64,000 nucleotides of DNA from Pseudomonadota bacterium (GTDB taxonomy: Bacteria; Pseudomonadota; Gammaproteobacteria; Acidiferrobacterales; UBA6901), in NCBI GenBank assembly GCA_021819085.1, contig JAKASJ010000013.1, forward strand, positions 7,107 to 71,106, in the 5' to 3' direction. A model generated the notes under the pieces. It had not been told where the DNA came from. It worked only from the letters and a program-made list of their open reading frames with translations, and ran no database searches. Positions within the stretch are counted from its first letter, which is position 1; every line of letters starts with the position of its first letter. Both the position numbers and the translations under genes were made by a program. Positions 142 to 64,000 of this stretch are shown here, in pieces.

Positions 142-192
142 ACCGGGCTTAGCACCACACTGCGGATCGTCTATTGCAGGGGACCCATCCGC

Positions 193-1113
193 TCATGGCG
201 CGAGACAGACTCGGTCGCGACCCGAGCGCTTGGCTTCGTACAGCGCGGCGTCGGCACGCTCGAAAAAGTGCCGTTCACTCTCCTGCACGCGCAGCATTGC
301 GACTCCCGCGCTTACCGTGAACCGGATGCTGCCGCCCGCCATCTGGCAGGGCGTGGCGCGCACCGCGAGACAGATGCGTTCTGCCAGCAAACGCGCGCCA
401 TACTGGTCGGTGCTGTTCATCAGGATGGAAAATTCTTCACCGCCAAAGCGCGAAAGAATATCGCTCTTGCGCGCACAATCGATCAGACGATTGGAAAGCG
501 TCTTGATTACTGCGTCGCCGGTCGCATGGCCATAGCTGTCATTGATATCCTTGAAATTATCGATGTCCAGGATAATCAGAGACAACGGGGTGTTGTTGCG
601 CCTGGCAAGCAGGATCTCCCGGCTCAGGGCGGAGTCCATCGCCGAGCGGTTGTACAGGCCGGTGAGCGGATCCCTGAGCGCCGACTGCAACGCGCGCTGA
701 TACATCAGCGCATTGCGCAGCGGGAAAGCCAGGGTGACCAGCAGGTTTTCGAACAGCACGGTCTCTTCGCGCCGAAACGGCGTGGCGCGCGTCACGACAA
801 GGTGACCCAGCGCTTCATCACCGAGCGCCAGACGATAGGTGCACGAGTGCGTTTGAGGCTTGCCGGTTTCCACCGCTATTTCCTGGATCAGGTTTCCGTA
901 ACTGAGGCTGGCATGCGGGATTACCGGCTGGATCGAGGCGGCGAAAATCCGGACCAACTGTCCAACGTCCAGTGTCGTCTGAAGCCGCGCCAGGAGATCC
1001 GCCGGACCAGATCCAGATTCTCGCGAACCATCACCAACGGTAACCGATCCGGCAGCCTTGGTCGCTGCCGATGCGGCGTCAACGTCGACTTGTAGTTGTT
1101 CGGGCATCACCAT
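193..1113 (-). CDS. Diguanylate cyclase (GGDEF domain) with an unassigned N-terminal sensor region
   Basis: 306-aa ORF. Active-site motif RFGGEEF, with the I-site RKSD five residues upstream. YNRSA...DIDNFKDINDSYGHATGD is typical of GGDEF domains. Confidence 0.9.
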   Translation of the reverse strand: MVMPEQLQVDVDAASAATKAAGSVTVGDGSRESGSGPADLLARLQTTLDVGQLVRIFAASIQPVIPHASLSYGNLIQEIAVETGKPQTHSCTYRLALGDEALGHLVVTRATPFRREETVLFENLLVTLAFPLRNALMYQRALQSALRDPLTGLYNRSAMDSALSREILLARRNNTPLSLIILDIDNFKDINDSYGHATGDAVIKTLSNRLIDCARKSDILSRFGGEEFSILMNSTDQYGARLLAERICLAVRATPCQMAGGSIRFTVSAGVAMLRVQESERHFFERADAALYEAKRSGRDRVCLAP

Positions 1114-1270
1114 TTCTTCTTATTCGTTTTGTCGGGCGCTCGAAACCCGACCCCGCGCCCATAATTCAGAACCTCGCTTCTGAACAGGGCCGGTTCGCGC
1201 ACGCTGCGCCATCTGCACTCTACCGCAATCCGCCACGCACCCTGATTCAGCACGATGGTCAATGACTGGC

Positions 1271-3257: not shown

Positions 3258-4051
3258 ACCGCAGCGCCGGCCGGCACAGGCGGATCGACAGCGGCCAGCA
3301 AATGGTCAAGCAACGCCGAATAGGCGGTAACCGCCCGCGCCTGAGGAAAGTGCTGGCAAGGCGTTATCCCGGCACGGCTCGCCTCGCGCAATTGGGTATC
3401 CACCGGAACCGTGCCGGACCAGAGGTGGTCCGGATAGCGCTCCTGCAGCTGACTCAGCGTGTCGAGTGAGGCGCGCGTACGCCGGTCGAACAGCGTGGGA
3501 ACAATCACATACGGCAGGTCAAGGCGACGTGAGCGCGTCACCATGCTCAGGGTATGCAGCATCCGTTCGAGACCCTTGAGTGCAAGAAACTCGGTCTGCA
3601 CAGGAATGATCAGGCGCTCGCAGGCGGCAAGGGCGTTGACCATGAGCAGCCCGAGCGCCGGTGGACAATCAATCAGCACATAGTCAAAGCGGCCACTGAG
3701 CTGCGCCAGGTAACGCGCCACCACGAGCCCCATGCCATCGCGCGCGCCCAGACGACGATCGAGCGTCGACAGCGCAGTGGATGCCGGAACCAGTGAAAGC
3801 CGCTCGCAGCCGGTCGGTCGAACCGAATCCGGATGCGCTGCCGAACCGGCGGCGGCATCAGCGAAGATATCGTAGACGCTCGATTCGACGGACTCCGGGT
3901 CGTAACCGAAATAGGCCGTGAGTGAGCCTTGCGGATCCAGATCCACCAGCAGGGTTTCGCGACCCCGCTGCGCCAGAAGACCGGCGAGCGCCACCGCGGT
4001 GGTGGTTTTCCCGACCCCGCCCTTCTGGTTGGCGATGGACCAGATATTCAC
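3254..4051 (-). CDS. parC: ParC-like ParA/MinD-family ATPase of the chemotaxis cluster
   Basis: Deviant Walker A at the N-terminus: IANQKGGVGKTTTAVALA. ParA-family length (265 aa). Located between motD and the CheW-like gene. Confidence 0.8.
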   Translation of the reverse strand: MNIWSIANQKGGVGKTTTAVALAGLLAQRGRETLLVDLDPQGSLTAYFGYDPESVESSVYDIFADAAAGSAAHPDSVRPTGCERLSLVPASTALSTLDRRLGARDGMGLVVARYLAQLSGRFDYVLIDCPPALGLLMVNALAACERLIIPVQTEFLALKGLERMLHTLSMVTRSRRLDLPYVIVPTLFDRRTRASLDTLSQLQERYPDHLWSGTVPVDTQLREASRAGITPCQHFPQARAVTAYSALLDHLLAAVDPPVPAGAAV

Positions 4052-56026: not shown

Positions 56027-56863
56027 GTGGCCGTGCTCGGTCTGCCACACGGAGCTGACCGCCGGCATGCGCTGTGTTTCGCATGCACGGATGCTGCTGA
56101 TCACACTGGAACTACCTTGAGCGACGAGCTGCCAGATCCCTTCCAGGAGTACTCACCTGAGATTGAGAGGATCTCATTTGCACCGCAGATCACGAGCCTG
56201 CTGCGACGCATCCGGGAGACCCGCTCGCTGCTGAGCGTCACCGTGGCTGGATCAGGCGAGCTCTACAACAGTGCTATCGTGGAGGTCGATGCCGAGCTCG
56301 GCTGCGTGCTGCTCGATGAATTGACACCTGTTGAAGGCCACATGCGCCTGTTGCAAAGTCGGGCATTGCATGCGCATGCGCGCCTGCGCGGCGTTGATAT
56401 CAGCTTCGCCGGCACACTTCAGGAAGCCGGCGAAAAGGACGGAATCGCCTTCTACAGGCTGCCTATACCGGCCCTGGTCAACTACCGGCAGCGACGCGCC
56501 AACTTTCGGGCACGCGTGGGCATGGGCATTCCGGTGCCGATAGGTCTTGGAAGCCGGCATATCGCAGAATTAGATGGCACATTGTACGATATTTCCATCG
56601 GGGGTGTCGGTGCGCTTGTTCGGGCTGGAAGCATGGCAGAGCTGCACCAAGGCTCGGTATTCGAGCGGTGCAACATCCGTTTGCCGAAAGGACATGAGAT
56701 CAGCTGCGGTCTGGAAATCCGCTATGTCAGTCACGACGAACGCCGTCATGCACTGCGAATCGGCGGACGTTATGTCGACCTTGGTCGCGCTCAGGAAAAA
56801 ATTGTCGAGCATTTCGTGGCTGCGCTGGAGCGCGAGCTTCTGCGCAAGATGCCGAAGGACTGA
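56027..56863 (+). CDS. flgZ: YcgR/FlgZ-type c-di-GMP flagellar brake (PilZN + PilZ)
   Basis: Canonical PilZ motifs RRANFR (RxxxR) and DISIGGVG (DxSxxG). The flgM-flgN-flgZ order matches Pseudomonas. The start codon is uncertain (GTG 56027 or downstream). Confidence 0.85.
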   Translation: MAVLGLPHGADRRHALCFACTDAADHTGTTLSDELPDPFQEYSPEIERISFAPQITSLLRRIRETRSLLSVTVAGSGELYNSAIVEVDAELGCVLLDELTPVEGHMRLLQSRALHAHARLRGVDISFAGTLQEAGEKDGIAFYRLPIPALVNYRQRRANFRARVGMGIPVPIGLGSRHIAELDGTLYDISIGGVGALVRAGSMAELHQGSVFERCNIRLPKGHEISCGLEIRYVSHDERRHALRIGGRYVDLGRAQEKIVEHFVAALERELLRKMPKD

Positions 56864-56874
56864 GGTGCCAGCTA

Positions 56875-57733
56875 TCAGCTGACGCTGACCGGCCGGCCGC
56901 GCATGCCGCCCACGAAGCAGACGGGCATCGATTGTGTGTTGTGCGCGCGGCCGAACCGTCCCTGCCTGTCGACAACGATCACACCGCCCTGGGACTGCGT
57001 AACGCGCTGCATCAGTGCAATCGCGTGCCGCGCGGCAAACTGGGGGCTGGCCCTTCTCTGAAGCAGGTCCACTGCGGATTTGCCCATGACGACCCGGATG
57101 ATTGCCTCACCGACTCCCGTACAAGATGCAGCGCCCATGGCGTCGGCAAAAGTCCCGCAGCCAATCAGCGGCGTATCACCGACACGCCCTGGCAACTTGC
57201 CGAATGTGCCGCCCGTTGAAGTCGCCGCCGCGACCACTCCCCGGACATCCGCGGCCACCGCACCCACAGTTCCCACTGCCGCCTGCCAACGACGCAGCTG
57301 CTGTGCCACAACCAGCGATGCTTCGCTGCAGCTTCGTACCCCCAATTTCCTGGCGTAACGGACCGCACCGTCACCGACAAGCAGCAGATGGCGTCCGTCC
57401 TCGAGAATGCGGCGCGCCAGGGCCACCGGGTTCCGGATACGCCTTATGGCGGCAACCGCTCCAGCCCGCATGCTACCGCCATCCATGATCGCCGCGTCCA
57501 GCTCCACGCGACCTTCGGCATTGAGCACCGAGCCGGTTCCAGCATTAAAGGATGGATTGTCTTCAAGAATAACTACCGCCGCCTCGACCGCATCCAGGGC
57601 CGTGCCGCCGCGCCTCAGGATGTCCCAGGCGGCCATCGCAGCTTCCCGACAACCCGCCAAGGGCACGCGCACTGCGTCGTGGGTACCAGCCAGCACCACC
57701 GTGCACCTGGATGGCAGGGAGCCGGGCGCTCAT
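56875..57733 (-). pseudogene. Isoaspartyl peptidase / L-asparaginase (Ntn hydrolase) with an N-terminal frameshift
   Basis: The main frame has ...DNPSFNAGTGSV... and the nucleophile region GTVGAVAADVRGVVAAATSTGG. The obligatory N-terminal strand MSARLPAIQVHGGAG lies in another frame. The junction is a CAGC-CAGC tandem at 57687-57694. Confidence 0.7.
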
Positions 57734-58055
57734 GGCAGGCAAACCGAGCCCATCGGGAGTAGCCGATACCGCCTCAATCCAGCCCACCTGCATGCCGCCG
57801 GGCGATGCTCTCTTCCTTTCGGACCCTGGGCGGACATTGTGATTAACAGCGCTTTCCGACGTCTGGTACGCACGACACGAGCATAGCGCAGAGCACCGAT
57901 ACCATACGACAATCCGAGTGCACACTGGTCAGTGGCATAAATTGTGCTTTAATCTGAGAAAGGAGCACCGTTTTCAACTGACCCCATTGCTGATCGTCCA
58001 TAACGGGCGGCGGCGGGCGGATTCATAACGAGCACCCGTACCTGGAGGTTGTGCC

Positions 58056-58283
58056 ATGAAAATGTTGCCGCTGCAGATGGTCATTATTGATTTGGAGAAC
58101 GGTCAACGGGGTGTATTCATCGGGCGGCCTTTGGTCATCGCGGAATCGGATGACGATGACTGCCATGTGGAAAATGTGTGGTTCACGAACATCCAGGAGA
58201 TCCCCGATACGGCAACCCTGGAACAACTCGCCAAAATGACCCTGGAACAGGTGCAGCCCACATCGAGCAAAATGCTCCAGTGA
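58056..58283 (+). CDS. Hypothetical small acidic protein (75 aa)
   Basis: ATG preceded by GGAGG at -12..-8. The sequence MKMLPLQMVIIDLENGQRGVFIGRPLVIAESDDDD... looks plausible for a globular protein. It conflicts with a 258-aa antisense ORF of poorer composition. I recognise no family. Confidence 0.35.
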   Translation: MKMLPLQMVIIDLENGQRGVFIGRPLVIAESDDDDCHVENVWFTNIQEIPDTATLEQLAKMTLEQVQPTSSKMLQ

Positions 58284-58620
58284 TTCCCGGTTCTGGTACA
58301 GGATTGCCGAGCGATAGCGGACAGCCGCCGACACACAGACATTGCCGCTTTCGAGGACTGCGTCTTTACCTGCCTGCGTGGCGGTGAAGCGCCATCCCCA
58401 GGGACACATGTTTTCACAAAGAGGGACGCCGGTCGCGACATCGATTCGTTTGCGACCGGCGTCGCACCATCCATAAGATACCCCGGGCGATCTGCCGGTA
58501 TCCTGCGCGAGGACCATGAATCTAGAACACCGGGCATCGCTTAACCCGACGTGGCAGCGATCCCATCCGTCTCGCGCCAGTCTCCAATACGCGATGTCAC
58601 CCCGAACACACTGCACCGCC

Positions 58621-58652
58621 CGATGCTGGCGGCCGCGCCCGGTCCAGCATCG
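58621..58652. repeat. Perfect 9-bp inverted repeat with a 14-nt GC-rich loop
   Basis: CGATGCTGG-cggccgcgcccggt-CCAGCATCG, located in DNA without a convincing ORF, downstream of the YHS gene. Confidence 0.5.
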
Positions 58653-58764
58653 CCTTAGCAACCAGGCTGCAAACCGACCCATAACCGGCAAATCGGACAA
58701 ATCGGCTACCCGGTGCAAGACGAAAAACCCCGGCTTCCGCCCGACACATCCGAATCGCTGGAGA

Positions 58765-58953
58765 TTAAGGCCTTTTCGCCCCGCGCCCGGACTCGCCACC
58801 GCGTCGCGCGCCGCTTGCGAACTTTACGGGATCTGCTGTGAACGCCTTGTGGCAACCTGGCGAGCAAAAATAATAGGTCTTGCCCTGATACTCAGCCCTG
58901 GCCGCTGCCCGTTTCTCGTCAATCACCATGCCGCATACTGGATCCGTTGGCAT
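58765..58953 (-). CDS. YHS/TRASH-domain small metal-binding protein
   Basis: MPTDPVCGMVIDEKRAAARAEYQGKTYYFCSPGCHKAF is the YHS motif. GGAGGG Shine-Dalgarno upstream. The ORF-track N-terminal extension was discarded. Confidence 0.8.
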   Translation of the reverse strand: MPTDPVCGMVIDEKRAAARAEYQGKTYYFCSPGCHKAFTADPVKFASGARRGGESGRGAKRP

Positions 58954-59408
58954 AATACCCTCCGATATACTCGCTGCACACCGGAAATAGCAGCGACGCA
59001 CCTTCACCGGCCAGCAGACTGTCACCGGCCTAGACCCTTGCGTTTGCAGTCCTGGCAACTGCTCCGCCGGGAAGTTCTGACCGACTCTTGGTCACCGGTC
59101 ACCCGCCATTCCAGATAACTGACTTTGCCACAACATCCCATGCCCCTCAACCACGGAAATCATGATAACGTCGATTGTTCAGGTCATTGCAAACTCGACC
59201 CTGCCGGACTTGTGCAATGGCCATGGCTGTGCTCGTTTTTTTTAAGCAGCAGGATTTGCATCACCCCGGACCCGATCTGTGGATTTGGGGCAAGGACCGC
59301 CAACGAGATCAGTTATTCAGCCCCGCCTCCCGGCAAAACTCCACCACGACGCCAACCGGCGGCTGTCGGACCTGAATATTTCATCGAATGTTGGGCGAAC
59401 GCGCTTTT

Positions 59409-59830
59409 CTAACGTATCAACACAAGCCAGGCCCCGCACACTGTTATTGTCAGGCTTGCTGCTATCAAGAATGTACGTACGGTTCTTTCCTGCCCCGACA
59501 TGTCGTGTTGACCATATTCGCACCTGGCAGGCGTGACTTTCCCGGCTGCGGCGGAGACCATTTCTGCCGCAGTGCCGCCGTTTCCGGTCGGACTCGCCCC
59601 GGGTACCCCAGTTGCAATCGCCGGCCGTTTCAAGTTGACCGCTGCGTTGTGGTCGCGGTCATGGCGTCCCTCATTCCGGGTACGTCCATTGACAATCATT
59701 CAGCGTCAGCGATCCGTTTTTCCAGCCACAGGCCGAACACAGCTGGCTGCTCGGAGCACCGTCTATCCTGGCACAGGGGGGTGTCGTGCCCTAGCGTTTC
59801 GTCTTGTATTCCATATGCAAGCGGAATATC
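59409..59830 (-). mobile_element. Degenerate C-terminal fragment of an IS200/IS605-family TnpB (OrfB)
   Basis: One frame reads ...PSSQLCSACGWKNGSLTLNDCQWTYPE* (zinc-finger region). After a frameshift it reads GRHDRDHNAAVNLKR...ASPTGNGG (the conserved DRD.NAA.N motif). No RuvC N-terminal part is present. Confidence 0.55.
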
Positions 59831-59899
59831 CCAAAGCCTACGTCAGATTGGTCATGTTATTTAATGTATAGAGACCAGCTGCCCATGCGGTTAACAGGT

Positions 59900-60680
59900 T
59901 GCTGAAAATACCCTGAAAAGAAACCATGCTCCTCAAATCGTTCAAAACGATGCGGTAGGCGAGTCTTCGCCCAATGAAGGGGGCGTCACGACCGTATCGA
60001 CGATGAAACCGCCGCGATGCTCCATCACGAGATTCCCGAGGGGGCAGCGCCGGTCGCCCGCACCGGGGGACTTCTTTAATAGAGCCGGCAGTCGGGGTCA
60101 GTCGTGCTTTCGTGGGGGTCGTTGGTCCGCGAGTCGCCGCGGAAATTAATGCTGCGGTTGCGCCCGGGGCCACCTTTCGACGGCGGTTCGTCCTCCGGGT
60201 GGAAACGCTTCATCGAGGCCTGGGCCTCGATGAGCGTCCCGTCTACCGAGAAGCGCTCATCGGAGGTGAGGTCTGCCGCCCTGGCCTAGGCCAGCACTTC
60301 GGCGAAGACCTTATGGACAAACCCGGCTTCCAGGAACCGCTCGCGGTTATGGGTGAACACCGTCGGCACCCACACCGGCTGTCCGCCCCGAGCCCCACGA
60401 ACCAGCAGAACAGGAGATTGTAATCGAGTTGCTCCATCAGGAGGCGCTCGCTCCGCACGGTGTAGAACACCTGCGCCAGGAGCGCGGATCAGTTTCTCGG
60501 GCATGATCGAAGGCCAGCCCAGCGGTGAGTAGGCGGCCTCAAAGCCTCACCGACAGCGCCGCGAGCGCCTCCTCGGTCAGGCGACGGATCACGCGCAGGG
60601 GGTGGTCTTTCGGAATACGCAACTCGGGCGAGACACACGAGAACAGACCTTCAATGACCTTGGCCGAACCCTGAGTTGCA
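59900..60680 (-). mobile_element. IS5-family DDE transposase remnant (N-terminal ~55%, multiple frameshifts/stops, 3' part deleted)
   Basis: Successive frames read EGLFSCVSPELRIPKDHPLRVIRRLTEEALAALS / SIMPEKLIRA / FYTVRSERLLMEQLDYNLLFCWFVGL / VWVPTVFTHNRERFLEAGFVHKVF / SDERFSVDGTLIEAQASMKRF...STTDPDCRLY / LGNLVMEHRGGFIVDT. All are hallmark segments of this transposase family. I identified no catalytic C-terminal half and no inverted repeats. Confidence 0.75.
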
Positions 60681-60773
60681 ATAGCCGTAACATAACAGGC
60701 CTGCGCATCCAGAAGATCTTTGATTCTGGAATTAGGCGGTACGACGTTTGGGCGACCAGCGCGGCGGCCCCGA

Positions 60774-60983
60774 TTACGGTCCGAGTCGAGCCAGCTCGCT
60801 ACGCAGCACAATCAAATGCGGGTGCGTGCTAATTCCGAGCCGTACCTGCATACCCGAAACCCGTGTCACAATAACCTCTATGGGCGCAGGACTGAACAGG
60901 GTTGCCACGGTCGTGTCCGGGTTCAGGTGTGGGCCTGGAAAAATCTGAAGCGCTTCGCCAGGCCGTCGCGATAGAATCAGCAT
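60774..60983 (-). CDS. CsrA/RsmA-family RNA-binding protein of the RsmN/RsmF-like (internally inserted) type
   Basis: MLILSRRPGEAL (CsrA beta1), then a ~22-aa insert, then IEVIVTRVSGMQVRLGISTHPHLIVLRSEL (CsrA beta3-5 with the RxEL motif). The ATG overlaps the stop of the upstream XRE gene (TGAATG). Confidence 0.6.
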   Translation of the reverse strand: MLILSRRPGEALQIFPGPHLNPDTTVATLFSPAPIEVIVTRVSGMQVRLGISTHPHLIVLRSELARLGP

Positions 60984-61265
60984 TCAGCTGCGCTCCAGCT
61001 TGTCGCTACCGTCACCATCCGCGCTGGTCATGAAGTTACCCAGACTCGCTGCATCAGGTTCCAGCAGGGTACACAATGAAACACCCAGAGCAGACGCGAT
61101 TTTTTCCAGGTTATCGAGACCAACGTTCAGCTCCGCGCGCTCCACATGACCGATATAGTTTCGGTGCAAACCGCTTGCTGCGGCCAACGCCTCCTGTGAC
61201 CAACCGCGCCCAACGCGCAACAGCCGGACTCGCTTTGCCAGCATCTTCCTGGTCCTTCCTTCCAT
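60984..61265 (-). CDS. XRE-family helix-turn-helix transcriptional regulator
   Basis: LAKRVRLLRVGRGWSQEALAAASGLHRNYIGHVERAELNVGLDNLEKIASALGVSLCTLL is a classic Cro/C1 HTH. The start is either 61265 or 61244. A TGTATAC-containing repeat overlaps the 61265 start. Confidence 0.8.
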   Translation of the reverse strand: MEGRTRKMLAKRVRLLRVGRGWSQEALAAASGLHRNYIGHVERAELNVGLDNLEKIASALGVSLCTLLEPDAASLGNFMTSADGDGSDKLERS

Positions 61266-61888
61266 GTATACAACTGTATCGGGGTGCAATGCAGGACGTC
61301 GACACAGCATTTAGAACGGTTTGCACCATTGTAGATGCGGAGACGTTCTTTTCCATTACGCGACATAATCCGGTACCGATGCTCCATACCGGCTGAAATT
61401 CCGGAAAATCGGCCAACAATAAACTCCGCGCTCCGAAAATCCGGTTATGGCAATCTTTGGCGTAGATTTTCGGTGCCGCGCCAACCGTCGGATGAACGGT
61501 GACCGGCCGTGCACAGACGAAATATGCTGCATCGAAGCTTTTTCGGCAGTTCTTCCGAGGCAACTGGTTGTTACCCCTGTTATCGGCCTAATTCCCGGGA
61601 CAGGACAGGATACGGTCCGGCTACCACCCCCCGGGGGCCACCTGCGATCTGGAAATCCCGTCCGGACCATGCCACGAAAACCCGACGACCAAAAAACATG
61701 GGGTTGGCTTCGTGTCATCTTGTGTGCGAAATGCATGTTTCCTGGATTGCGCAGCAAATTGCGGCGCACCAACGGTAATCTGCCCGCGCACCCTAGTTGT
61801 GATCCTGGACTAGGAGACCAGGCGCTAAAGCGAGAGCGCTGATCCCTGTCATGGGGCCGGGGACGCCGCGCCCCGGATCAGGGGCATC

Positions 61889-62269
61889 ATGAATTTCCTG
61901 GACGCGGCGTTTCGTGTCTGCGCAGAGTTGATACATACGGCGGCCCATGCTCTGGCGCAGGCTTCATTGCGTACTCGGGGAACGGTTCCTCATTCGGAAC
62001 TTCTTGCTGCGGCCGGCCATATAATGCGACGCGCTATACCGGAATCGCCGGGAGGCATTACGACAGGAATGGGGCCGAACTTCCAATCGGCTCGGCGCCC
62101 TGACCAGCCCCCTTCTGAACAGTGCACGGGAATCCGCGACCGCTATCCCGGCATGTCCGCTGACGCCTCCGTTCCTCCGGACAAGATTGGCCCCGGCCCG
62201 GAGGCTGCACCGATCTTCGACATCGAAATGACGAACTCATTCAATCCGGACACCGCGTGTGTCACCTAA
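61889..62269 (+). CDS. Questionable hypothetical ORF (126 aa)
   Basis: Only an open frame with moderate GC3. No recognisable motif and no clear Shine-Dalgarno. It sits in an ORF-poor, lower-GC stretch. Confidence 0.15.
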   Translation: MNFLDAAFRVCAELIHTAAHALAQASLRTRGTVPHSELLAAAGHIMRRAIPESPGGITTGMGPNFQSARRPDQPPSEQCTGIRDRYPGMSADASVPPDKIGPGPEAAPIFDIEMTNSFNPDTACVT

Positions 62270-62319
62270 ACCACACTGTCCGCGTCACACCGAATTTTTG
62301 TGGCGCAGATCGAGTTCAT

Positions 62320-64000
62320 TCAGCGCCGACGCTTGCCACGGCCAGCTGGGCTTCCCGGATTTAAACCGGCCGGTGACCCTGCAATCGCACCCGGAGCAGG
62401 ACGCGTCGCCAACCCGGTATGCTGGGTGCGAAATCGTCCATCCTTGCCGCAGCGTCCCGCCGGGCTGTCGCCTGACCAACCTCTATTTGAGCTGCCTGCA
62501 TTGCGCACAGGTGTGTGCAGTGTCCGGTTGTCGGGCCGCGAGTCCGTCTGCCTCGCGGCGGATGCAAACGGCTGGGTCGCTGGCACGAGCTGACGCTTTC
62601 CGCTACCGATAAGGTCCGCTCGGCCCATGCGTCGTAGCGCCTCGCGCAGCAGCGGCCAATTGTCTGGATCGTGATAACGCAGGAACGCCTTGTGCAGACG
62701 ACGCGCCCTGATTCCCTTGGGAATGACCACGTCCTCGCTGGTGCGTGTCACCTTGCGCAGAGAATTTTTTCCTGAATGGTACATTGCCGTGGCGGTTGCC
62801 ATGGGCGACGGAAGAAAGGCCTGGACCTGATCGGCACGAAATCCATTGCGCTTCAGCCATAGCGCCAGCTCGAGCATGTCCTGGTCAGTCGTACCCGGAT
62901 GGGCGGCGATGAAGTAGGGAATGAGATACTGCTCCTTGCCGGCCTCTTTCGAATACTGGTCGAACATCTCCTTGAAGCGGTCATAGGTGCCCATACCCGG
63001 CTTCATCATCTTGCTCAATGGACCCTCACACAGGTGCTCAGGGGCGATCTTGAGGTAACCGCCGACGTGATGACTAACCAGTTCCTTCACGTACTCCGGA
63101 GATTCGATCGCGAGGTCATAGCGTACCCCGGACGCAATAAGTACCTTCTTGATGCCCGGCACCGCGCGCGCCCGACGATACAGCCGGATGAGCGGTGCAT
63201 GGTCTGTGTCCAGGTTCTTGCAGATTCCGGGATATACGCACGATGGCTTGCGGCATGCCGACTCGATCTCCTGACTGCGGCAGTGCAGGCGGTACATATT
63301 GGCGGTTGGCCCGCCAAGGTCCGAAATGATGCCGGTGAAACCAGGGACGGTATCGCGCACGGATTCTATTTCGCGGATCACCGATTCTTCCGAACGGCTT
63401 TGAATCACCCGCCCCTCGTGCTCCGTGATCGAACAGAATGTGCATCCGCCGAAACAACCGCGCTGGATGGTAATTGAAAAACGGATCATCTCGTAGGCAG
63501 GAATACGCAGGTTGCCATAGGACGGATGTGGCCGCCGGGTGTAAGGCAACTCATAGACACGATCCATTTCGCGCGTCGATAGCGGGAGCGCCGGTGGGTT
63601 GAGCCAAAGATCGCGATCGCCGTGACGCTGCACCAGGGCACGTGCATTGCCGGGATTGGACTCCGTATGCAGAATGCGCGATGCATGAGCGTACAGAACC
63701 TTGTCGCCCGCCACCTGATCAAACCCCGGCAACCTGACCACGCTGCTGCTTCGGCTCATCCGAATCCCACTACGCTCGAAACGCAGGGGAGCAGACACCA
63801 CGGGCATGACATCCTGGCGGGCAGTATCGGAAGTTTCCGGCGATGCATAGGGATTCGCCGGGGGAGTAAGCGGCCCCGGAATGTCGACGCTGGTTGAATC
63901 AATCTCGGTCCATCCGTCAGGAATGCCCTTTCGCAGAAATGCAGTTCCGCGGACATCAGTGATCGCGCTGATCTGTTCGCCGCGCGCGAGCCTGTGTGCG
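62320..64000 (-). CDS. ygiQ: YgiQ-family radical SAM protein (UPF0313); 5' end lies outside the window
   Basis: [18 protein letters not shown] (CxxxCxxC cluster), flanked by [13 protein letters not shown]...[12 protein letters not shown]...[10 protein letters not shown], and a basic C-terminal tail. The same frame stays open upstream of the ORF-track Met (63807) to the window edge (...[18 protein letters not shown]...). Confidence 0.9.

Follow-up and report, generated by a model that had tools for sequence, protein, structure and literature searches.

A csrA-like gene of the RsmN/RsmF type paired with a C-protein-like XRE gene in a gammaproteobacterium of the Acidiferrobacterales

The window analyzed here is a 64,000-nucleotide (nt) stretch of contig JAKASJ010000013.1 from a Pseudomonadota bacterium (assembly GCA_021819085.1; Gammaproteobacteria, Acidiferrobacterales). 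On its minus strand it carries two small adjoining genes, which encode a helix-turn-helix (HTH) protein of the XRE family and a protein of the CsrA family. The XRE gene occupies positions 60984 to 61265 (stop codon TGA at 60984 to 60986), and the csrA-like gene occupies positions 60774 to 60983 (ATG at 60981 to 60983; stop codon TAA at 60774 to 60776) and encodes 69 amino acids (aa), MLILSRRPGEALQIFPGPHLNPDTTVATLFSPAPIEVIVTRVSGMQVRLGISTHPHLIVLRSELARLGP. Both open reading frames (ORFs) were located where an earlier interpretation made from the DNA letters (the sequence-only reading) had placed them. That reading had the csrA-like ATG overlapping the XRE stop codon; the two codons in fact abut (TGA-ATG, 60981 to 60986, minus strand) with a spacer of 0 nt, and the likely Shine-Dalgarno sequence of the csrA-like gene, GGAG, sits within the 3′ end of the XRE gene. 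Among relatives the spacer ranges from −7 to +46 nt. Mechanically, the XRE ORF extends to 61310. Because the ATG at 61265 (MEGRTRK...) is conserved in every relative, we take the XRE protein to be 93 aa long, as had been assumed; the equivalent starts read MQGRAR in locus L018, MGKRARK in L093, MGKGARE in L106, and MVRRARD in L115.

The csrA-like protein and its XRE partner

Membership of the 69-aa protein in the CsrA family, which the sequence-only reading had claimed, was borne out by a Pfam profile search, in which CsrA (PF02599) scored 39.7 bits against a gathering threshold of 27 (E = 4.8e-10). The match falls into two stretches around an insertion of ~17 to 20 residues. No other Pfam family and no PADLOC model matched the protein, and it fell well short of the equivalog cut-offs for canonical csrA in NCBIfam (TIGR00202/NF002469; 30.7 versus 70.1 and 33.1 versus 73 bits). 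Its top sequence matches in the PDB were RsmF (4k59) and RsmN (4kji), which cover residues 2 to 65, whereas canonical CsrA structures align to residues 33 to 65 only.

An AlphaFold2 model of the monomer was built from 114 homologues and has a predicted local distance difference test score (pLDDT) of 91.7. According to DSSP, the model consists of strand β1 (residues 2 to 6), β2 (12 to 16), a helix (26 to 29), β3 (36 to 43), β4 (46 to 52), and β5 (57 to 61), followed by a 4-residue turn; the chain ends at residue 69 without a C-terminal helix of the RsmA type. When the model was compared with the PDB by Foldseek, significant matches were limited to 4k59, 4kji, and 4krw, with template modeling (TM) scores of 0.71 to 0.82 and root-mean-square deviations (rmsd) of 1.8 to 2.7 Å (4krw, TM 0.80 to 0.82 and rmsd 1.8; 4kji and 4k59, TM 0.71 to 0.79), and the next-best match beyond RsmF/RsmN had an E value of 2.6. 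The predicted strand order, β1-β2-helix-β3-β4-β5, confirms the rearranged RsmN/RsmF-type topology that had been read from the sequence, and not the topology of canonical CsrA.

The residues with which proteins of this family contact RNA are among the most conserved. Across 114 aligned family members, M1, L2, R6, and R61 are invariant, and L4, T/S5, F30, and E63 are kept in at least 90% of the sequences. The window protein carries, as L2, L4, R6, R61, and E63, the equivalents of the RNA-binding residues L2/L4, R6, R44, and E46 of CsrA. An alignment with RsmF maps the conserved positions onto L4, L6, S7, R8, R62, and E64 of RsmN, which in RsmN touch the ANGGA motif and form the salt bridge between Arg8 and Glu64 (Morris et al., PMC3791407). 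Replacing one of them in the substitution R62A weakens RNA binding by RsmN more than 1000-fold (PMC3791407). None of the residues with which RsmN holds ANGGA is missing from the window protein. Mainly because these surface residues stay conserved family-wide, RNA binding appears to have been retained, and the 69-aa protein most likely binds GGA-containing RNA.

One position next to this surface sets the window apart from its relatives. Codon 62 of the csrA-like gene (60798 to 60800), adjoining the invariant RNA-binding Arg61, encodes Ser (LRSEL), and all close relatives (proteins P0001 to P0006; loci L013, L009, L001, L005, and L017) carry Arg there (LRREL).

The XRE protein matched HTH_3 (PF01381) with 54.1 bits (threshold of 23) and HTH_31 with 42.1 bits (threshold of 27). 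It also matched the PADLOC model Control_protein (PDLC03665; 72.1 bits, E = 8e-21) and, in the PDB, 3vk0 (E = 4e-16), C.AhdI (E = 1e-10), and C.BclI (E = 4e-10). By these sequence comparisons, it is C-protein-like, its closest relatives being the controller (C) proteins of restriction-modification systems. An acidic tail of ~25 aa follows the HTH domain. Measured against four relatives, the ratio of nonsynonymous to synonymous substitution rates (dN/dS) is 0.02 to 0.09 for the XRE gene and 0.06 to 0.14 for the csrA-like gene. Values in this range (0.02 to 0.14) indicate purifying selection, and we therefore regard both as functional genes.

Linkage of RsmN-type genes to small HTH regulators

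An exhaustive HMMER search with a profile of the clade retrieved 1,494 representatives at E ≤ 1e-3, of which 116 reached E ≤ 1e-10. Of the 150 best-scoring representatives in this search, nearly all align over residues 1 to 65 in a single stretch and consequently share the insertion. A broader profile retrieved 4,993 clusters (90% identity) at E ≤ 1e-6. Named sources include Sulfurifustis variabilis (SVA_2926), Acidiferrobacterales metagenome-assembled genomes (MAGs), Methylophaga, and Thiohalophilus. The pairing of an XRE gene with a csrA-like gene recurs in unrelated contexts down to ~45% identity, including S. variabilis (L093), an Acidiferrobacterales MAG (L018), and contigs from soil and sediment.

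We took a census of 34 distinct RsmN-type loci (the window included) out of thousands, drawn from genomes, metagenomes, and protein look-ups. Domains were detected with a local hidden Markov model (HMM) for each, and partners were confirmed with Pfam; three Pfam-annotated loci (L205 to L207) were added. A small HTH regulator is adjacent or fused in 32 of the 34 loci, being XRE-type in 29 and a DUF6471 protein in 3. The XRE gene lies directly upstream on the same strand in 11 loci and directly downstream in 8, and a LexA-like regulator with XRE and S24 domains lies 355 nt upstream in 1 (L019). Four loci encode a fused protein, with the CsrA domain N-terminal and the HTH domain C-terminal; 8 have a divergent small HTH gene only, and 2 have no HTH partner. 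When the partner proteins were searched with Pfam, 25 of 29 matched HTH_3 and 2 of 29 matched DUF6471, and 1 also contained Peptidase_S24. By contrast, none of 127 canonical csrA controls has an XRE gene directly upstream and 3 of 127 have one within 1 kb (local HMM); from a reading of the ORFs, their neighbors are mostly FliW, flagellar hook-associated and other flagellar genes, and LuxR-type genes.

Among the 150 best-scoring representatives, ~19 are 140 to 180 aa long and, according to Pfam, join an N-terminal CsrA domain to a C-terminal HTH_3/HTH_31 domain. Such proteins recur across many independent assemblies, as exemplified by Thiohalophilus WP_310694224.1, by P0013, P0026, P0046, P0048, and P0054, and by the loci L102, L109, L111, and L117. 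The view that the XRE and csrA-like genes form one unit is thus upheld by conserved synteny among relatives at 67 to 97% identity, by co-occurrence in unrelated contexts, and by single-chain fusions. The sequence-only reading had not recognized the pair as a characterized module, and indeed a literature search combining CsrA/RsmN with XRE, HTH, or toxin-antitoxin retrieved no published description of an XRE gene paired with an RsmN-type gene. The association across this large family, and the gene pair within it, appear to be undescribed.

Several members depart from the simple two-gene layout. P0023 (202 aa) and P0144 (154 aa) contain two RsmN-type domains in tandem and may be single-chain pseudo-dimers. 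L206 (2104 to 3931) holds two successive three-gene units, each with a divergent HTH_3 gene, a csrA-like gene, and an HTH_3 gene 4 to 5 nt downstream. In L205 (1 to 2746) and L110 (981 to 3246), a DUF6471 gene is encoded divergently from the RsmN-type gene, which stands beside genes for an NspV restriction enzyme and an N6 methyltransferase (N6_Mtase); a SIR2_2 gene adjoins the module in L207, and the contexts of L205, L110, and L207 are defense-island-like. In L019 (4545 to 6225), from a Methylophaga species, a canonical-type csrA gene (59 aa, minus strand) is divergent from the gene for a 233-aa protein with XRE and Peptidase_S24 domains, and the RsmN-type csrA gene (74 aa) follows 355 nt downstream of the latter, a layout resembling the Legionella lvr region.

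Chromosomal site and upstream region of the pair

The closest relatives of the pair, L001 to L017, come from uncultured gammaproteobacterial MAGs and share 67 to 97% protein identity with it. In all of them, the same gene, coding for a YgiQ-type radical-SAM protein, immediately precedes the XRE and csrA-like genes. The neighbors in the window are ygiQ, insertion sequence (IS) debris, and a YHS gene. L005 to L007 also match the window in what comes after the pair, namely, a 75-aa ORF, then an asparaginase gene, and then ycgR-flgN-flgM-flgA.

Comparison with the closest relative, L013 (88% nucleotide identity), located the IS debris precisely. The two sequences are colinear from window position 64000 to 60760 and again from 59346 on; similarity ends at 60760, 14 nt beyond the csrA-like stop codon. 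The intervening segment (59347 to 60759, minus strand) consists of IS5/IS1182-type fragments with frameshifts, including a DUF772 transposase fragment at 60243 to 60470 that scores just below its cut-off (22.8 versus 23.1 bits), and lies outside the module; L013 has a DrsE-like gene in its place. An IS5-type remnant flanking the pair, as the sequence-only reading had described, is thus present, with its boundary now set at 14 nt past the stop codon and not merely within ~100 nt of it. The IS is absent from L013, L009, L005, and L001, and the pair is intact at the same ygiQ-adjacent site in each. That reading had also raised the question of whether the C terminus (…SELARLGP) was truncated by the IS. 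Alignment showed it to be native: the csrA-like proteins of IS-free relatives are 66 to 69 aa long, and that of L013 has the same ...ARLGP ending, so that truncation is ruled out by equal lengths and an identical C terminus. The pair has a G+C content of 57.7%, and the window as a whole one of 60.2%. Judged from these sequence comparisons, the pair is older than the IS and is not a by-product of it, the IS being a later insertion.

A tblastn search with the window protein found no copies in 72,556 plasmids and 50,697 phages. A plasmid or phage origin was considered and is unsupported; an RsmN-type query from Methylophaga matched only canonical plasmid csrA. The viral contigs carry essentially canonical-type csrA, with match lengths of 141 to 147 nt, the exceptions being L185 (156 nt) and L192 (168 nt).

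The flagellar cluster that had been placed ~4 kb from the pair indeed lies ~3.9 kb away, with a YcgR/PilZ gene at 56027 to 56863. Beyond the pair and the 75-aa ORF, L001 has a 72-aa fragment of a methyl-accepting chemotaxis protein and then a GGDEF gene that matches window positions 190 to 1119, from which it follows that a flagellar block of ~56 kb is missing at the L001 site. This flagellar/chemotaxis block (window positions about 1119 to 57900) is an insertion-deletion difference relative to L001 (6534 to 8762). A tblastn search of the window with three FliW sequences did not find FliW.

The 75-aa ORF itself (58056 to 58283, plus strand; MKMLPLQMVIIDLENGQRGVFIGRPLV...) is conserved and acidic and has no Pfam or PHROG match. 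It is convergent with the csrA-like gene and lies downstream of it at distances of 212 nt (L018), 323 nt (L001), 393 nt (L005), and 1018 nt (L017); in the window, the insertion parts it from the pair.

Upstream of the XRE gene, a candidate operon promoter (61273 to 61304, minus strand) combines TGTCGACG at −39 to −32 from the ATG with a −10-like hexamer, TACAGT, at −13 to −8. In an ATG-anchored alignment, the same geometry is seen in L013, L009, L001, L005, L018, L093, L106, and L115, with TGT(C/A)GACG at −39 to −32 and a −10-like hexamer (TACAGT, TGCAAT, or TATAAC) that ends 6 to 7 nt ahead of the ATG, leaving no Shine-Dalgarno sequence between them. On the strength of this conserved geometry alone, the mRNA of the XRE operon may be leaderless. 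Leaderless transcripts are known for C.PvuII and lambda cI, and the leaderless pvuIICR transcripts are autoregulated via C-boxes. No canonical C-box (GACT...AGTC) was identified upstream of the XRE gene, where TGT(C/A)GACG is conserved. An inverted repeat, GGTGCAA-N31-TTGCACC (61283 to 61327, minus strand), which emerged from a repeat search and the ATG-anchored alignment, spans the candidate promoter and is a possible operator. An alternative sigma-70-like site, TGGAAA-16-TACAAT (61328 to 61355, minus strand), would leave a leader of ~55 nt. Four GGA motifs fall within the initial 21 nt of the XRE ORF, in bases that also code for the conserved basic N-terminal arm. A scan of positions 57500 to 62500 against Rfam at E ≤ 1 gave only two sub-threshold chance hits.

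Two further features of these upstream regions deserve mention. The ~1-kb gap between ygiQ and the XRE gene (61311 to 62319) has no recognizable gene, its ORFs lacking Pfam matches and the segment lacking an Rfam match; it is conserved with L013 only, the corresponding interval being 147 to 236 nt in L005 and L001 and an unrelated segment of ~950 nt in L009. In L093 (about 3540 to 3565), L106, and L115, loci that otherwise differ, a conserved perfect palindrome, TAGCACGATATCGTGCTA, precedes the start of the XRE gene by ~200 nt; in L093 it directly follows an HTH_17 (excisionase-type) gene.

A proposed regulatory module and its relation to known systems

CsrA/Rsm proteins are among the best-studied bacterial posttranscriptional regulators, and their known antagonists are sponge small RNAs, FliW, and CesT. 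We propose that the genes described here constitute a conserved two-layer regulatory module, an obligate pair of a DNA-binding XRE protein and a GGA-RNA-binding protein with the RsmN fold, and give this proposal about an even chance of being right. By binding an operator at the promoter of its own gene, the XRE protein would control how strongly the operon is transcribed and hence how much CsrA-like protein is made; the csrA-like gene would be translationally coupled to the XRE gene. The CsrA-like protein would act posttranscriptionally by binding GGA sites in the leaders of presumed target mRNAs. Near-universal adjacency together with repeated fusions (the Rosetta-stone argument) suggests that the two proteins operate jointly, probably as a physical complex. 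Such a complex, if it exists, would be a new link between transcriptional and translational control. The same gene arrangement is present in a cultured isolate, S. variabilis (SVA_2926 and its upstream neighbor), which makes the question testable now.

A number of observations weigh against this proposal. A generic promoter scan made no call at the candidate promoter, and its single hit, the alternative sigma-70-like site, is at chance level, since shuffled sequences give one too. The operator is not defined, as relatives keep only the distal GGTGCAA half of the inverted repeat. A hairpin that presents GGA in its loop at the csrA-like Shine-Dalgarno sequence is seen in the window and in L013, and the GGA is lost in L009. 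As to the linkage, the census samples 34 loci of thousands, and the local HTH HMM was trained on the partner XRE proteins and is less sensitive for the canonical controls, Pfam having confirmed the positives only.

It is tempting to go further and to see in the RsmN fold no peculiarity of Pseudomonas but the signature of a widespread, hitherto unrecognized group of regulators in which DNA binding and RNA binding are coupled, with P. aeruginosa RsmN as an orphan whose partner was lost; we put this forward tentatively, as a possibility short of even. A CsrA-like dimer that binds GGA RNA and a C-protein-like XRE protein would then form one machine, either as two subunits or as a fused chain, for example, a repressor whose operator occupancy responds to transcripts or one that captures nascent transcripts at its own promoter.

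The pair could instead be a toxin-antitoxin-like or addiction module, in which an RsmN-fold effector arrests growth through a broad block of translation at GGA/Shine-Dalgarno sites and the XRE protein serves as antitoxin and repressor. Two very small, co-directional, and coupled genes with the DNA-binding protein first would suit such a module, as would the ~25-aa acidic tail after the HTH domain and the likeness of the XRE protein to C proteins, which gate the expression of toxic restriction enzymes. Permuted gene order and fusions, which occur in toxin-antitoxin families, are found in other members, and the patchy distribution, the defense genes beside L205 and L110 (NspV and N6_Mtase) and L207 (SIR2_2), and the two tandem copies in L206 point the same way. 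However, the csrA-like protein cannot be assigned to any known toxin family, tblastn detected no copy in the plasmid and phage collections searched, the window clade shows vertical inheritance at one site under strong purifying selection, and the characterized relative RsmN is an ordinary regulator without a partner. We consider this unlikely on balance, and an addiction module of this kind would represent a new effector class. Another explanation dispenses with RNA and holds that the CsrA-like fold was co-opted as a dimerization or effector domain of the XRE protein, working through protein contacts as a co-repressor or anti-repressor. CsrA-family proteins are dimeric and HTH repressors must dimerize; the fusions place the CsrA-like domain where HTH regulators usually have sensor or oligomerization domains, and the second, divergent XRE gene of many loci recalls a CI/Cro-like layout. 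Yet the most conserved positions, L2, L4, R6, R61, and E63, form the RNA-contact surface of RsmN, and because dimerization by itself would not need them, pure co-option seems quite improbable.

The sequence-only reading had also considered that the pair might be the regulatory core that survives from a mobile element since lost. IS debris does abut the pair, every relative has a different segment downstream of the csrA-like gene, and members of the family occur elsewhere in phage-like (L095) and defense-island contexts. A decayed, IS-associated element is nevertheless unsupported at this locus and very unlikely, given that the four relatives lacking the IS keep the pair intact beside ygiQ, that the G+C content of the pair is close to that of the window, and that dN/dS values well below 1 mark an older pair under purifying selection into whose neighborhood the IS came later. 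Least credible is the suggestion that the pair is a dedicated posttranscriptional regulator of the adjacent flagellar regulon in the manner of CsrA-FliW. The short distance to ycgR-flgN-flgM-flgA in the window, the similar proximity in L005 to L007, and the finding that P. aeruginosa RsmN represses flagellin translation in Bacillus subtilis (Swarm-seq preprint, PMC12247646) speak for it. Against a role in motility, L001 keeps the pair and its 75-aa neighbor with the flagellar block absent from the site, the modules of Sulfurifustis, L097, and L205 to L207 stand in unrelated contexts, and FliW was not found in the window; this role is highly improbable.

The pair shares features with several known systems and differs from each. 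Toxin-antitoxin systems of type II with XRE antitoxins (HipBA, HigBA, Xre-RES, and XRE-DUF397) likewise consist of small coupled genes in variable order, but they differ in that the csrA-like partner is not a member of any known toxin family and that, in the window clade, the pair is stably kept on the chromosome. C proteins of the C.AhdI, C.BclI, and C.PvuII type resemble the XRE protein in size, in sequence, and in being encoded by the first gene of a coupled operon, and the geometry upstream of the window XRE gene would fit a leaderless promoter of the pvuIICR type. The downstream gene, however, belongs to the CsrA family and does not encode a restriction enzyme, and restriction-modification genes are not among the neighbors of the pair in the window; L205 and L110 do adjoin NspV and N6_Mtase, but the HTH protein there is DUF6471. 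The Legionella lvrRABC operon of integrative conjugative elements and genomic islands, described as unique to Legionella, combines a LexA-like repressor gene with a CsrA-domain gene, with two genes between them, on islands encoding type IV secretion systems (T4SSs) (PMC3864950). An HTH repressor and a csrA-like gene in one regulatory operon are common to both, and L019 of Methylophaga comes nearest. LvrR, however, is a LexA-like protein that includes an S24 domain, and its gene is separated from lvrC by lvrA and lvrB, whereas the window XRE protein is HTH-only and its gene abuts the csrA-like gene; none of the flanking genes examined near the window pair encodes a T4SS. With CsrA-FliW the pair would share, by analogy, an adjacent dedicated protein partner, which here is a DNA-binding HTH protein and not FliW.

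Canonical CsrA/RsmA/RsmE share the Pfam family and the conserved RNA-binding edges β1 and β5 with the window protein. They lack the insertion, carry a C-terminal helix, and form a domain-swapped dimer, and their loci contain FliW, flagellar genes, or neither, with no XRE gene directly upstream among the controls. The closest likeness is to P. aeruginosa RsmN/RsmF (4kji, 4krw, and 4k59), which have the same helix-bearing insertion between β2 and β3, no long C-terminal helix, and the same contacts (L2, L4, R6, R61, and E63 here corresponding to L4, L6, R8, R62, and E64 of RsmN). The window protein is not an ortholog of Pseudomonas RsmN, as it is only ~31% identical to it and its context differs from the PA5183-PA5184 intergenic region. 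P. aeruginosa rsmN (L202 and L204) has no XRE or other HTH neighbor; the genes on either side code for a chorismate mutase and hypothetical proteins. In the literature, RsmN/RsmF figures as a paralogue of unique structure that is restricted to Pseudomonas and arose by local duplication (PMC3791407, PMC7366521); RsmN was called unique to P. aeruginosa, with a few RsmN-like proteins reported in Pseudomonas and attributed to duplication within the genus (PMC3791407, PMC7366521, PMC6061880). The family described here lies outside Pseudomonas and is much larger. In it, RsmN-fold proteins nearly always come with a small XRE repressor, in some cases within one polypeptide, and the characterized Pseudomonas protein, which lacks a partner, is the exception.

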